Assembly: GCA_007130585.1 (NCBI GenBank)
Contig: SLSE01000030.1
Location: 4,267-68,266 of the forward strand
DNA: 64,000 bases
Source: Syntrophomonadaceae bacterium
GTDB taxonomy: Bacteria > Bacillota > Dethiobacteria > DTU022
Direction: 5' to 3'
Positions 7,197 to 10,280 of this stretch are shown here, piece after piece (the stretch's first letter is position 1; every line of letters begins with the position of its first letter). Under the pieces are notes generated by a model. The model was not told where the DNA came from and did no database searches. It saw only the letters and a program-made list of their open reading frames with translations. The translations under genes were made by a program, and so were the position numbers.

Positions 7197-10100
7197 CTAC
7201 TCCTCTTCTTCCCTTTTTTGCAGTTCAATTTTAAGCTCATCGAGCTGTCCGCCGTCAACGGAAGCGGGAGCGCCGGTCATCAGGCAGCTGGCTGCCGCCG
7301 TTTTCGGAAAAGGTATAACCTGGCGGATTGAATCGTCCCCTGCGAGCAGGGCAACCAGGCGGTCCAAACCGAGGGCAATCCCGCCATGAGGGGGAGCGCC
7401 AAAGGAGAGAGCTTCCAGCAAAAAGCCGAATTTTTCAATGCTTTCTTCTTCCGATAAGCCCAGCAGCTTAAATATTTCGGCCTGGGTTGCGCTGTCGTGG
7501 ATACGGGTACTCCCTCCGCCTATCTCCACTCCGTCGAGCACAAGATCGTAGGCCTGGGCCCGCACGGCAAGGGGATCGCTTTGCAGGACAGGCATATCTT
7601 CCACCCTGGGCGCAGTAAAAGGATGGTGATCGGAGTCGTAGCGCCGTTCATCTTCGTTATAGTGGAAGAGCGGGAAATCCACAACCCAGAGAAAATGCGG
7701 GTCGGCTGAGATATCTTCCGGAGCCAGGTGACGGCGCAGGTGGCCCAAAACCTGGCAGGTTGTCTCCCACCTGTCGGCTACAAAGAGCAAAACATCGCCC
7801 GGCTGCGCTTCCATCCGATTATTAATATCCCCGATCAGCTGTTCGCTGAAAAACTTGCTGATTGGAGAGCGCCAGCTGTTTTCTTCGACAAAAACCCAGG
7901 CCAGGCCGCTGGCGCCAAGCTGGCGGGCCAGCAGCGTGAGATCATCGAGGTCTTTGCGGCTCATCCTGCCGCCGCCTTTTACACGCAGGCCCTTAACCGA
8001 ACCTCCGGTCTCAAGGGCTGATTTGAAAACTTTGAAATCGCTGGTTCCGGCCAGGTCATCAAGATCGAGCAGCTCCATACCGAACCGCAAATCCGGTTTA
8101 TCTGACCCGAAGCGGTTCATGGCTTCCCGGTAAGGCATGCGCAGGAAAGGCCGTTTGATTTCAATGCCGTGAATCTCTTTCCAGAGCAGGGCAACCAGCC
8201 CTTCCAAAAGGGCAAAAAGGTTTTCCGGGCCGAAAAATGAAGTTTCGATATCAACCTGGGTAAACTCCGGCTGGCGGTCCGCCCTGAGGTCTTCGTCACG
8301 GAAGCAGCGCACGATCTGGAAGTAGCGCTCGACGCCGCTAACCATGAGCAGCTGCTTGAACAGCTGTGGCGATTGGGGAAGGGCGTAGAATGAACCGGGA
8401 TGCTGGCGGCTGGGCACCAGGAAATCCCTGGCCCCTTCCGGAGTGCTGCGGGTCAGCATGGGCGTTTCAATTTCCATGAAATCATAACGATCCATGTAGT
8501 CACGGATTAATTTAACAGCCCTGTGGCGCAACTGCAGCCGGCCAAGCATTTCGGGGCGCCTTAGATCAAGGTAACGGTAACGCAGACGGAGGTTTTCATC
8601 AACATTTGTATTATCTTCTATATAGAAAGGAGGAGTCCTGGAAGTATTTAAAACCTCCATACCGTCGACACGCACCTCAACCCGGCCCGTAGGCAGGGCA
8701 GGGTTAATATTTTCGTCCGACCGCCTGACAACCTCGCCTTCCACGGAAACGACATATTCGCTGCGCAGGTTTTCAGCTTCATTAAAAAGGCCGGAGCCAA
8801 GCTGCTGATCGAAAACCAGCTGCACTACTCCGCTGCGGTCTCTCAGATCAATGAAGATCAGGCCGCCGTGGTCGCGCCGTTTGCCTACCCAGCCGGCCAG
8901 CTTAACCCGGCTTTTGATATAATCGGCATCGAGAACGCCGCAGTAGTGAGTTTTCCTGTCGGGGGCACCCAGGGGCGGCAGGGTAACCTCAGCCGTGGCG
9001 GGAGCGGTAACCGCTTCCGTTTCCGGGGGGCAGTCTTCGAGGATGAGTTCAAAGATTGCCTCACGCACCACTTCCTGCTGCTGACCACTTTCCATGTTAC
9101 GCAGGGTAACAACGCCGCGGGAAATTTCATCTTCCCCGATGATGGCTACATACCTGTAACCCTGCCGGCCGGCATATTTCATCTGGGCTTTCAGGCTGCG
9201 CTCCATCATCTCCGTTTCGGCAGCAATGCCCTTTTCCCGCAGTTCGGAAGCAAGCAGAAGAGCTTCACCTTCAAGTCCGCTGCCCGCCGGGGCGATGTAT
9301 ACCGATGTTAAAGGTTCGGGCATCTGCCTGCTCCAATCCATGGTCAGGAGAATTCTTTCCACACCGAAGGCAACCCCTACTCCCGGGGTGGGAGGCCCGC
9401 CGCAATGCTCCACAAGGTGATCGTAGCGGCCTCCTCCGCATAGCGACGCCTGGGAACCCGAAGCCCCGGCCGTAATTTCAAAAGCCGTGCGGGTATAGTA
9501 ATCGAGGCCCCTGACCAGGCGGCTGTTCAGGTTGTAAGGTATTTCAAGCCTGTCCAGCAGCCTTCTGACTGCGGCAAAGTGCCGGTCGCAGTCGGGGCAC
9601 AGGTAATCAGTCATCCTGGGTGCCGCCTCTATAGCGGCCTGGCAGCTTTCCGCCTTACAGTCGAGGACGCGCATCGGGTTGTTCCTGTAGCGTTTAACAC
9701 ATTCTTTACAGAGATCTGCCCCGGCATTTTCAAGATAAGGCACCAGAACTTCCCGGAACTGCGGCCGGCAAACCGGGCATCCCACACTGTTCAGTTCAAT
9801 AGAGAGGTTTTCCAGCTGCAGCGAACGAAAAAACCTGTAGCAAAAAGAGATGATTTCCGTATCGGCGGCAGCATGGGCCGCCCCGAATATTTCAAGCCCA
9901 AACTGGTTAAACTGACGGTAACGGCCGGCCTGGGGGCGATCGTAGCGAAACATGGGGCCGATATAATAAAGCTTAACCGGTTGGGGTTGTTCTTTCAGGT
10001 TGTGTTCAAGGTAAGCCCGCGCAACAGCAGCGGTCAGTTCCGGGCGGAGGGTTAAGTCGCGCCCGCTGCGATCCTTGAAGGTATACATTTCCTTTGAAAC

Positions 10101-10280
10101 AATGTCGCTGTCCTCCCCCACACTGCGGACAAAAAGTTCGGTTTGTTCAAACATGGGGGTGCGAATCTCGCCAAACCCGTAAAGGGTGCAGAAATCGCTG
10201 AACAATTTCTCCAGGTGCTGCCACTTTTTTGCTTCATCCGGTAGTATGTCCCGGGTTCCCCGGGGTGCCCTGTAGTTCAT
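7197..10280 (-). CDS. hisS-aspS: histidyl-tRNA synthetase and aspartyl-tRNA synthetase encoded as one in-frame 1027-aa ORF (HisRS-AspRS fusion)
   Basis: The N-terminal ~420 aa are HisRS (MNYRAPRGTRDILPDE..., motif 3 GGGRYDHLV). The C-terminal ~590 aa are AspRS (THYCGVL...WVGKRRDHGGLIFIDLRDRSG OB fold; class II motif FRDEDLRADRQPEFTQVDIE). They are joined by PETEAVTAPATAEVTLPPLGAPD, with no stop codon and no restart in between. Confidence 0.75.
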   Translation of the reverse strand: MNYRAPRGTRDILPDEAKKWQHLEKLFSDFCTLYGFGEIRTPMFEQTELFVRSVGEDSDIVSKEMYTFKDRSGRDLTLRPELTAAVARAYLEHNLKEQPQPVKLYYIGPMFRYDRPQAGRYRQFNQFGLEIFGAAHAAADTEIISFCYRFFRSLQLENLSIELNSVGCPVCRPQFREVLVPYLENAGADLCKECVKRYRNNPMRVLDCKAESCQAAIEAAPRMTDYLCPDCDRHFAAVRRLLDRLEIPYNLNSRLVRGLDYYTRTAFEITAGASGSQASLCGGGRYDHLVEHCGGPPTPGVGVAFGVERILLTMDWSRQMPEPLTSVYIAPAGSGLEGEALLLASELREKGIAAETEMMERSLKAQMKYAGRQGYRYVAIIGEDEISRGVVTLRNMESGQQQEVVREAIFELILEDCPPETEAVTAPATAEVTLPPLGAPDRKTHYCGVLDADYIKSRVKLAGWVGKRRDHGGLIFIDLRDRSGVVQLVFDQQLGSGLFNEAENLRSEYVVSVEGEVVRRSDENINPALPTGRVEVRVDGMEVLNTSRTPPFYIEDNTNVDENLRLRYRYLDLRRPEMLGRLQLRHRAVKLIRDYMDRYDFMEIETPMLTRSTPEGARDFLVPSRQHPGSFYALPQSPQLFKQLLMVSGVERYFQIVRCFRDEDLRADRQPEFTQVDIETSFFGPENLFALLEGLVALLWKEIHGIEIKRPFLRMPYREAMNRFGSDKPDLRFGMELLDLDDLAGTSDFKVFKSALETGGSVKGLRVKGGGRMSRKDLDDLTLLARQLGASGLAWVFVEENSWRSPISKFFSEQLIGDINNRMEAQPGDVLLFVADRWETTCQVLGHLRRHLAPEDISADPHFLWVVDFPLFHYNEDERRYDSDHHPFTAPRVEDMPVLQSDPLAVRAQAYDLVLDGVEIGGGSTRIHDSATQAEIFKLLGLSEEESIEKFGFLLEALSFGAPPHGGIALGLDRLVALLAGDDSIRQVIPFPKTAAASCLMTGAPASVDGGQLDELKIELQKREEEE

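Follow-up and report, generated by a model that had tools for sequence, protein, structure and literature searches.

Does a bacterium make its histidyl- and aspartyl-tRNA synthetases (HisRS and AspRS) as a single protein? The question is raised by a locus on contig SLSE01000030.1 of a Syntrophomonadaceae bacterium, analyzed here within a stretch of 64,000 nucleotides that we call the window. An original prediction, made from the DNA letters, had read hisS and aspS in this window as one in-frame open reading frame (ORF) of 1027 amino acids (aa), and had named a base miscalled in a homopolymer as a real alternative. The ORF is as it was described, and the comparisons below argue, at a probability that we put at about 0.82, for a genuine and evolutionarily fixed fusion that would give one polypeptide, a complete HisRS followed by a complete AspRS of the bacterial type. 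Judged by its relatives, the fusion is fixed and conserved across a group of uncultured anaerobic bacteria.

The reading frame, its relatives and its two halves

The frame runs without interruption from an ATG at 10280 to a TAG stop at 7197-7199 and carries all seven expected Pfam domains in order. The predicted span, 7197-10280, therefore stands, with the correction that the gene lies on the minus strand. The junction reads ...ELILEDCPPETEAVTAPATAEVTLPPLGAPDRKTHYCG..., as quoted in the original prediction. That prediction had also seen no ATG or GTG with a Shine-Dalgarno sequence that could start a separate aspS, and we agree: no in-frame ATG, GTG or TTG occurs from aa 405 to the AspRS N-terminus of the window ORF, the linker included. 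A strong Shine-Dalgarno sequence precedes the single start and a terminator follows the single stop. The fusion predicts a junction-spanning tryptic peptide, EAIFELILEDCPPETEAVTAPATAEVTLPPLGAPDR.

We then asked how far the fused frame extends among other genomes. Among 5.8 billion protein clusters, our search recovered 86 that are fused over their full length (1022-1051 aa, 60-84% identity), all with both domain sets. They are drawn from NCBI, JGI, ENA and Logan assemblies of many independent samples, and their hosts are metagenome-assembled genomes (MAGs) named 'Syntrophomonadaceae bacterium' from soda lakes or soda-lake sediments, 'Bacillota bacterium' and 'Dethiobacteria bacterium'. Partial matches, truncated where their contigs end, reach across the junction as well, at identities down to about 58% (P0081, P0084, P0089-91, P0097 and P0098), and no unfused AspRS above 70% identity was present among the matches of the cluster search. 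Orthologous loci had been proposed as the decisive comparison, with a stop codon in all close relatives speaking for two genes; the opposite was found, as full-length relatives down to about 60% identity are all fused and have no stop at the equivalent position. With HMMER, run on 1.84 billion cluster representatives (50% identity), the best 150 matches listed include one full-length fusion (P0071, 1455 bits); the next match scored 683 bits, and the other 149 hold the AspRS half only, most of them at about 600 aa.

An alignment-based scan of metagenomes returned mostly generic unfused hisS-aspS loci and one new fused locus among 80 (L017, 74% identity, in the same clade as the window). The 79 other loci lack a fused ORF and so bear out the expectation of adjacent, normally separate hisS and aspS genes. 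Two clusters at 47-48% identity, P0092 and P0093, also appear to be in-frame fusions, each from only one or two sequences. A set of distant proteins of 900-1200 aa (P0095, P0099-P0101, P0106, P0110 and P0113) was considered and rejected: these have no HisRS anticodon-binding domain and Arg-rich junctions, and are likely frameshift artefacts rather than independent fusions.

Both halves of the window protein have the make-up of complete enzymes. On the HisRS half, Pfam places tRNA-synt_His and tRNA-synt_2b at aa 8-310 and HGTP_anticodon (PF03129) at aa 327-415; on the AspRS half, it places the OB fold (PF01336) at aa 459-544, tRNA-synt_2 at aa 561-994 and GAD (PF02938) at aa 752-845. The HisRS half scored 526.2 bits over aa 5-404 against the hisS equivalog model TIGR00442 (cut-off 286.75), and the AspRS half 824.2 bits against NF001750 (cut-off 443) and 740.6 bits over aa 442-1022 against TIGR00459 (cut-off 373.85). 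Models of the archaeal-type non-discriminating AspRS stayed below cut-off, a result that does not settle tRNA-Asp/tRNA-Asn specificity for bacterial-type enzymes. Solved structures define both edges of the linker, which we therefore place at aa 415-442: solved bacterial HisRS chains align to aa 2-414 of the fusion, with residues 3-417 of the 420-residue S. aureus HisRS (1QE0) covered, and in the solved AspRS of T. thermophilus and E. coli the alignment begins at residue 2-3, matched to fusion aa 442/443 and onward. The structure alignment search found no PDB chain that spans both halves.

The catalytic blocks are invariant in 86 of 86 sequences. On the HisRS side these are R79-P80-E81, F111-R-Y-D-R-P-Q117, R257-G-L-D-Y-Y262, G282-G-G-R-Y286 and G302/G306/E308/R309 (RPE, FRYDRPQ, RGLDYY, GGGRY and G.G.ER), which we take to be the class II and HisRS signature motifs (LRPE, RGLDYY, GGGRYD); on the AspRS side they are QSPQ, FRDEDLR.DRQPEFTQ, HHPFT, GG.S.R and G.ALG.DR. 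Because the equivalog models are passed and the signature blocks are invariant, the evidence indicates that both halves are under strong purifying selection as enzymes, and both are predicted to be active.

Within HisRS, the insertion domain (aa 168-231, about 9588-9779 on the minus strand of the window) holds eight invariant Cys in four pairs (C168/C171, C191/C194, C208/C213 and C228/C231). Nearly all are kept in unfused relatives (seven of the eight in two of ten checked), which points to a pair of zinc sites as is typical of HisRS of this type, and not to a feature of the fusion.

The linker and the origin of the fusion

Across the 86 clusters, the linker varies from 19 to 41 aa (mode 28) through in-frame indels and is enriched in Ala, Gly and Pro, and slightly in Glu and Ser. 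Linker columns have a mean identity of 0.12-0.15, those of the enzyme domains 0.65-0.81, and no Pfam family matched aa 415-458. Low identity, an A/G/P-rich composition and variable length are as expected for a translated spacer that keeps the frame.

The flexible linker of the original prediction holds up in its low conservation and its disordered part, but the linker is not uniformly floppy, and it contains a conserved motif, A-E-V-x-L-P. In clade A, which comprises 67 clusters and includes the window, P435 is kept in 65 of the 67, L434 in 56 and V432 in 51, and the motif stops 8 residues ahead of the K-[TS]-H-Y-C-G that is invariant in AspRS. It is absent from the basal fused lineages and from clade B, where the AspRS N-terminus is degenerate (...EPPGCGEL). 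An AlphaFold2 (AF2) monomer model reached a mean predicted local distance difference test (pLDDT) of 68 and a predicted template-modeling score (pTM) of 0.51, and its whole chain is too weak for claims between domains. Locally, aa 417-427 fall below a pLDDT of 50 and aa 431-440 reach about 74, a hint that would fit a linker whose first half is floppy and whose motif is ordered and attached to the AspRS domain.

The closest unfused relatives (L009/L010 with P0096, L011/L012 with P0105, and L013 with P0102) keep the neighborhood relA-dtd-hisS-aspS-6S RNA (for the 6S RNA, this was seen in L009 and L011). Between hisS and aspS these relatives have 10 nt, 15 nt or a one-base overlap, TAATG; for pairs coupled in translation in this way, a single small mutation would bring about fusion. 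We infer that, in an ancestor of a Dethiobacteria / soda-lake 'Syntrophomonadaceae' lineage, a tightly packed hisS-aspS pair lost its hisS stop codon and that a short tail or spacer turned into the linker. Plain read-through of the intergenic spacer was rejected as the source, as 10-15 nt or an overlap, the state of the unfused relatives, is too short for 28 aa. Since the linker is longer than these spacers, it would either have grown after the fusion or derive from a HisRS C-terminal tail. The HisRS of L013 ends in 'AINVPGRKEEV' before its stop codon, similar to fused linkers such as 'AEVILPGKVEEAQ', which suggests that the motif may come from an ancestral HisRS C-terminal tail; the match is very short, however, and L013 groups with clade A in 0 of 100 bootstraps. 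In a concatenated neighbor-joining (NJ) tree, clade A is monophyletic in 100% of bootstraps and all fused sequences together in 52%.

Among the unfused metagenome loci (L018-L096), hisS and aspS lie in the same frame with only the hisS stop between them in 37 of 68 (TAA 16, TAG 14, TGA 7), an excess over one third that is probably inflated, as the tblastn ranking favors such loci. Loss or read-through of that stop codon, a single event, would fuse same-frame pairs.

Weighing the fusion against its alternatives

A one-base error in the C6/G6 run, or elsewhere at the junction, might have erased a hisS stop so that there are really two genes. The window does derive from a metagenome-assembled genome, and a six-base homopolymer does sit in the linker, one base further along than the 9024-9029 first given. 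However, shifting the frame in either direction gives no hisS stop with an aspS start behind it in the frame of AspRS: a one-base slip in the homopolymer leads, in one of the shifted frames, to a stop 11 codons on (after 'GNGSGYRSRHG') and leaves AspRS without a start codon in its own frame, so that two genes are not restored. Proteins in ENA and Logan assemblies that are 1-2 residues off the window protein, all outside the linker, have an identical linker including DCPPE, the peptide at the homopolymer, which is thereby the same in three independent assemblies (NCBI, ENA and Logan) of near-identical strains. Likewise, the junction DNA of 13 fused relatives differs in sequence and shares no common homopolymer, and the frame is always kept, as it is across the 86 diverged clusters. 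With independent assemblies in agreement, diverged relatives in frame and a slip that fails to restore two genes, we reject the homopolymer error and give an artefact at the junction next to no credence. We also considered that the fusion is real but that one half is a non-catalytic paralogue, for instance a regulator like HisZ or an appendage that binds tRNA, with the true HisRS or AspRS coming from another gene of the genome. Paralogues of HisRS, HisZ among them, are indeed common in bacteria, but the HisRS half, well above the hisS equivalog cut-off, falls below the cut-off of every HisZ model in NCBIfam. It also keeps its anticodon-binding domain, of the C-terminal HGTP type that HisZ lacks, and occupies the syntenic hisS position between dtd and aspS, while the catalytic signature residues are invariant in both halves. 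We regard a paralogue as very unlikely.

A fused ORF could still yield separate enzymes, either by internal initiation in the linker, which would give free AspRS, or by proteolysis of the linker, for example near A-E-V-x-L-P. A short motif that stays conserved while the rest of the linker drifts freely could mark a recognition site, although a protease site is purely conjectural. As for initiation, the window motif reads GCT GAG GTT ACC CTG CCG, in which CTG comes 5 nt after GAGG; of 12 clade A loci, 6 have the GAGG, L017 has TTG at the motif Leu, and the clade B locus L014 has a TTG after GAGGGG (GAGGGG-N5-TTG). Yet in 11 of the 12 clade A loci the Leu codon is CTG (nine loci), CTT or TTA, all inefficient start codons in bacteria, and GAGG is destroyed in the other six, where Glu is GAA (four loci, against six with GAG) or is replaced by Ala or His (two loci). 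The Pro is written in all four of its codons while the amino acid stays fixed, which places the conservation on the peptide and not on an RNA signal, and in the linkers of clade B no position is conserved as Leu, Met or Val. On the codons of these 12 loci, an internal Shine-Dalgarno sequence and start within the motif (GAGG-N5-CTG/TTG) was rejected as a general mechanism; since the codons vary synonymously while the residues stay, they indicate that the constraint on A-E-V-x-L-P is at the peptide level. Altogether, we consider it improbable that the two enzymes end up separate.

Some observations do weigh against a fixed fusion protein. The AF2 monomer model is mediocre and carries no quaternary-structure information. 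In one clade B lineage, an in-frame TTG follows GAGGGG, and the NCBI pipeline called a separate aspS there. The unfused L009 lineage groups with the fused clade B in 43% of bootstraps, and a tree of AspRS only nests the unfused P0102 inside the fused group; one fusion, two fusions, or one fusion followed by one fission are histories that the NJ bootstraps do not separate.

For a genuine fusion, the intact motifs suggest two independent class II active sites that would charge tRNA-His and tRNA-Asp separately. The two anticodon-binding domains, the C-terminal alpha/beta domain of HisRS and the N-terminal OB fold of AspRS, would flank a mostly disordered linker of about 28 residues, on whose AspRS side A-E-V-x-L-P is probably an ordered N-terminal extension of AspRS, packed against its N-terminal domain, as the model hints. 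Fusion would impose 1:1 synthesis and co-localization of HisRS and AspRS. Both parents are class II synthetases that form obligate homodimers, and because both are homodimeric, the fused protein would probably be an alpha2 particle that holds four active sites, or some larger assembly. The original prediction had suggested that a fusion could couple the charging of the two tRNAs; what the fusion would impose is joint expression and location, and catalytic coupling is not expected, because the HisRS and AspRS reactions share only ATP.

Gene neighborhood and comparison with known synthetase fusions

The features of the locus are collected in Table 1. In the window, relA/spoT and dtd are probably co-transcribed with the fusion.

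Table 1. Features of the fused locus in window coordinates.
Feature	Position	Strand	Basis or remark
HisRS-linker-AspRS fusion ORF, 1027 aa	7197..10280	minus	ORF reading, Pfam domains, identical architecture in >85 protein clusters
HisRS moiety, aa 1-414: class IIa core, Cys-rich insertion, C-terminal HGTP anticodon-binding domain	9039..10280	minus	TIGR00442, 1QE0 alignment, invariant blocks
Inter-synthetase linker, aa 415-442 (EDCPPETEAVTAPATAEVTLPPLGAPDR), 28 aa, fast-evolving, Ala/Gly/Pro/Glu-rich	8955..9038	minus	Column identity, composition, pLDDT
Linker motif A430-E-V-T-L-P435 (consensus A-E-V-x-L-P)	8976..8993	minus	Alignment, codon variation, pLDDT
AspRS moiety, aa 443-1027: N-terminal OB-fold, class IIb core with GAD insertion (bacterial type)	7197..8954	minus	NF001750, TIGR00459, structure alignment, invariant blocks
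G6 (plus strand) / C6 (coding strand) homopolymer within the linker, suspected error site	9025..9030		Position read from sequence
Shine-Dalgarno sequence GGAGAGGAG, 7 nt upstream of the fusion ATG	10288..10296	minus	Direct sequence reading
Intrinsic terminator-like hairpin, 10-bp stem then T-run, 22 nt past the fusion stop	7151..7174	minus	Sequence analysis
relA/spoT	10872-13058	minus	Upstream of the fusion; order kept in all relatives
dtd	10305-10754	minus	Upstream of the fusion; stop codon 24 nt upstream of the fusion ATG

The spacer between dtd and hisS is 24-25 nt long in the window (10281-10304), L097 and L100, and 129-232 nt in other clade A loci; the comparison also took in L098 and L099. 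It measures 521 nt in clade B (L014, 3480-4000), where it holds a 60-aa ORF, and 330-495 nt in the unfused L009 (2240-2733) and L011 (2395-2722), whose spacers show clear promoter boxes resembling TTGACA/TAGAAT. Directly downstream of the fusion terminator lies a 6S RNA gene (Rfam RF00013, 92 bits; 6780-6958, minus strand), and this adjacency to aspS is kept in fused and unfused relatives alike (L002-L007, L009 and L011). The hisS-aspS operon of B. subtilis has a T-box leader upstream. At Rfam gathering scores, the window and 9 related loci, fused and unfused, gave no T-box leader, a null result that supports no statement about T-box loss.

In an 885-aa ORF elsewhere in the window (38680-41337, minus strand), aa 37-429 form a class III aminotransferase domain. 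The next 450 aa or so have only weak matches of the Rossmann type (Shikimate_DH, THF_DHG_CYH_C), and PigE, a prodigiosin enzyme, is matched in several segments below threshold. The ORF adjoins a proS of the archaeal/eukaryote type at 37148-38629 and, by its domain layout, may be another fusion protein.

In public databases, fusion sequences are labeled merely 'aspartate--tRNA ligase', and the NCBI annotation is inconsistent. In at least one deposited genome, GCA_035402165.1 (L102, DAONCS010000012.1, nt 1193-4291), the only gene annotated at this locus is a 596-aa aspS (P0142) that starts at an internal TTG, although the DNA encodes an uninterrupted fused ORF of 1024 aa, identical to P0077, whose HisRS half is left unannotated. 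Mis-annotated in this way, these MAGs seem to lack HisRS, and both the estimates of their completeness and the reconstructions of their metabolism are distorted.

Reviews give the metazoan EPRS as the example of two synthetases on a single polypeptide chain, there joined by WHEP repeats (PMC4394549, PMC11580382). The HisRS-AspRS fusion resembles EPRS in having two complete synthetases on one polypeptide, a non-catalytic linker, an origin by gene fusion and fixation in a clade; each half of EPRS charges its own tRNA (PMC4394549, PMC11580382). EPRS, however, is eukaryotic, combines a class I GluRS with a class II ProRS through a folded RNA-binding WHEP linker and is a member of a multi-synthetase complex, whereas the HisRS-AspRS fusion is bacterial and combines two class II homodimeric enzymes whose genes were already operon neighbors, through a low-complexity linker of about 28 aa with no WHEP or other Pfam domain. 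Because this linker has no WHEP repeats, matches no Pfam family and is poorly conserved, the sequences place the fusion as an analogue of EPRS, not a member of its family. With the separate hisS-aspS operon of Firmicutes/Bacillota it shares gene order, orientation and neighbors (relA and dtd upstream, 6S RNA downstream), and its halves are orthologous; the operon has a hisS stop and an aspS start, and the fusion has neither.

Fused and doubled synthetases have been described in bacteria, as with the (alpha-beta)2 GlyRS in fused form and the double-length TyrRS (PMC11580382), and NCBIfam holds models for AspRS-GatC (NF009460) and for LysX, MprF-LysRS (NF002821). AspRS-GatC, LysX, fused GlyRS and double TyrRS are cases of bacterial synthetase genes that fuse with neighbors or functional partners while staying active. 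None of them, however, joins two complete synthetases of different amino-acid specificity, whereas the HisRS-AspRS fusion does so in one frame across species. Against the AspRS-GatC model the window protein scored 622 bits, below the cut-off of 1379. Full-text literature searches returned no paper on a HisRS-AspRS fusion or on any bacterial fusion of one synthetase to another.

A more far-reaching proposal, which we hold to be doubtful, is that of a clade-wide two-synthetase enzyme, the first bacterial counterpart of EPRS, in which the motif docks on the AspRS anticodon-binding domain and so fixes a four-active-site particle or a filament. If true, this would be a minimal bacterial multi-synthetase complex, with properties absent from the separate enzymes, for example mutual stabilization, coordinated regulation or tRNA hand-off, in energy-limited haloalkaliphilic syntrophs. 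The mechanism of the fusion itself is simple, and its interest is moderate, as co-expression is the sole function shown. Nevertheless, a lineage-fixed fusion with unfused sister lineages offers a clean natural experiment on the route from operon neighbors to multidomain proteins; it shows in what way two obligate homodimers of different kinds deal with tethering, and it lets the functional benefit of tethering synthetases be tested.

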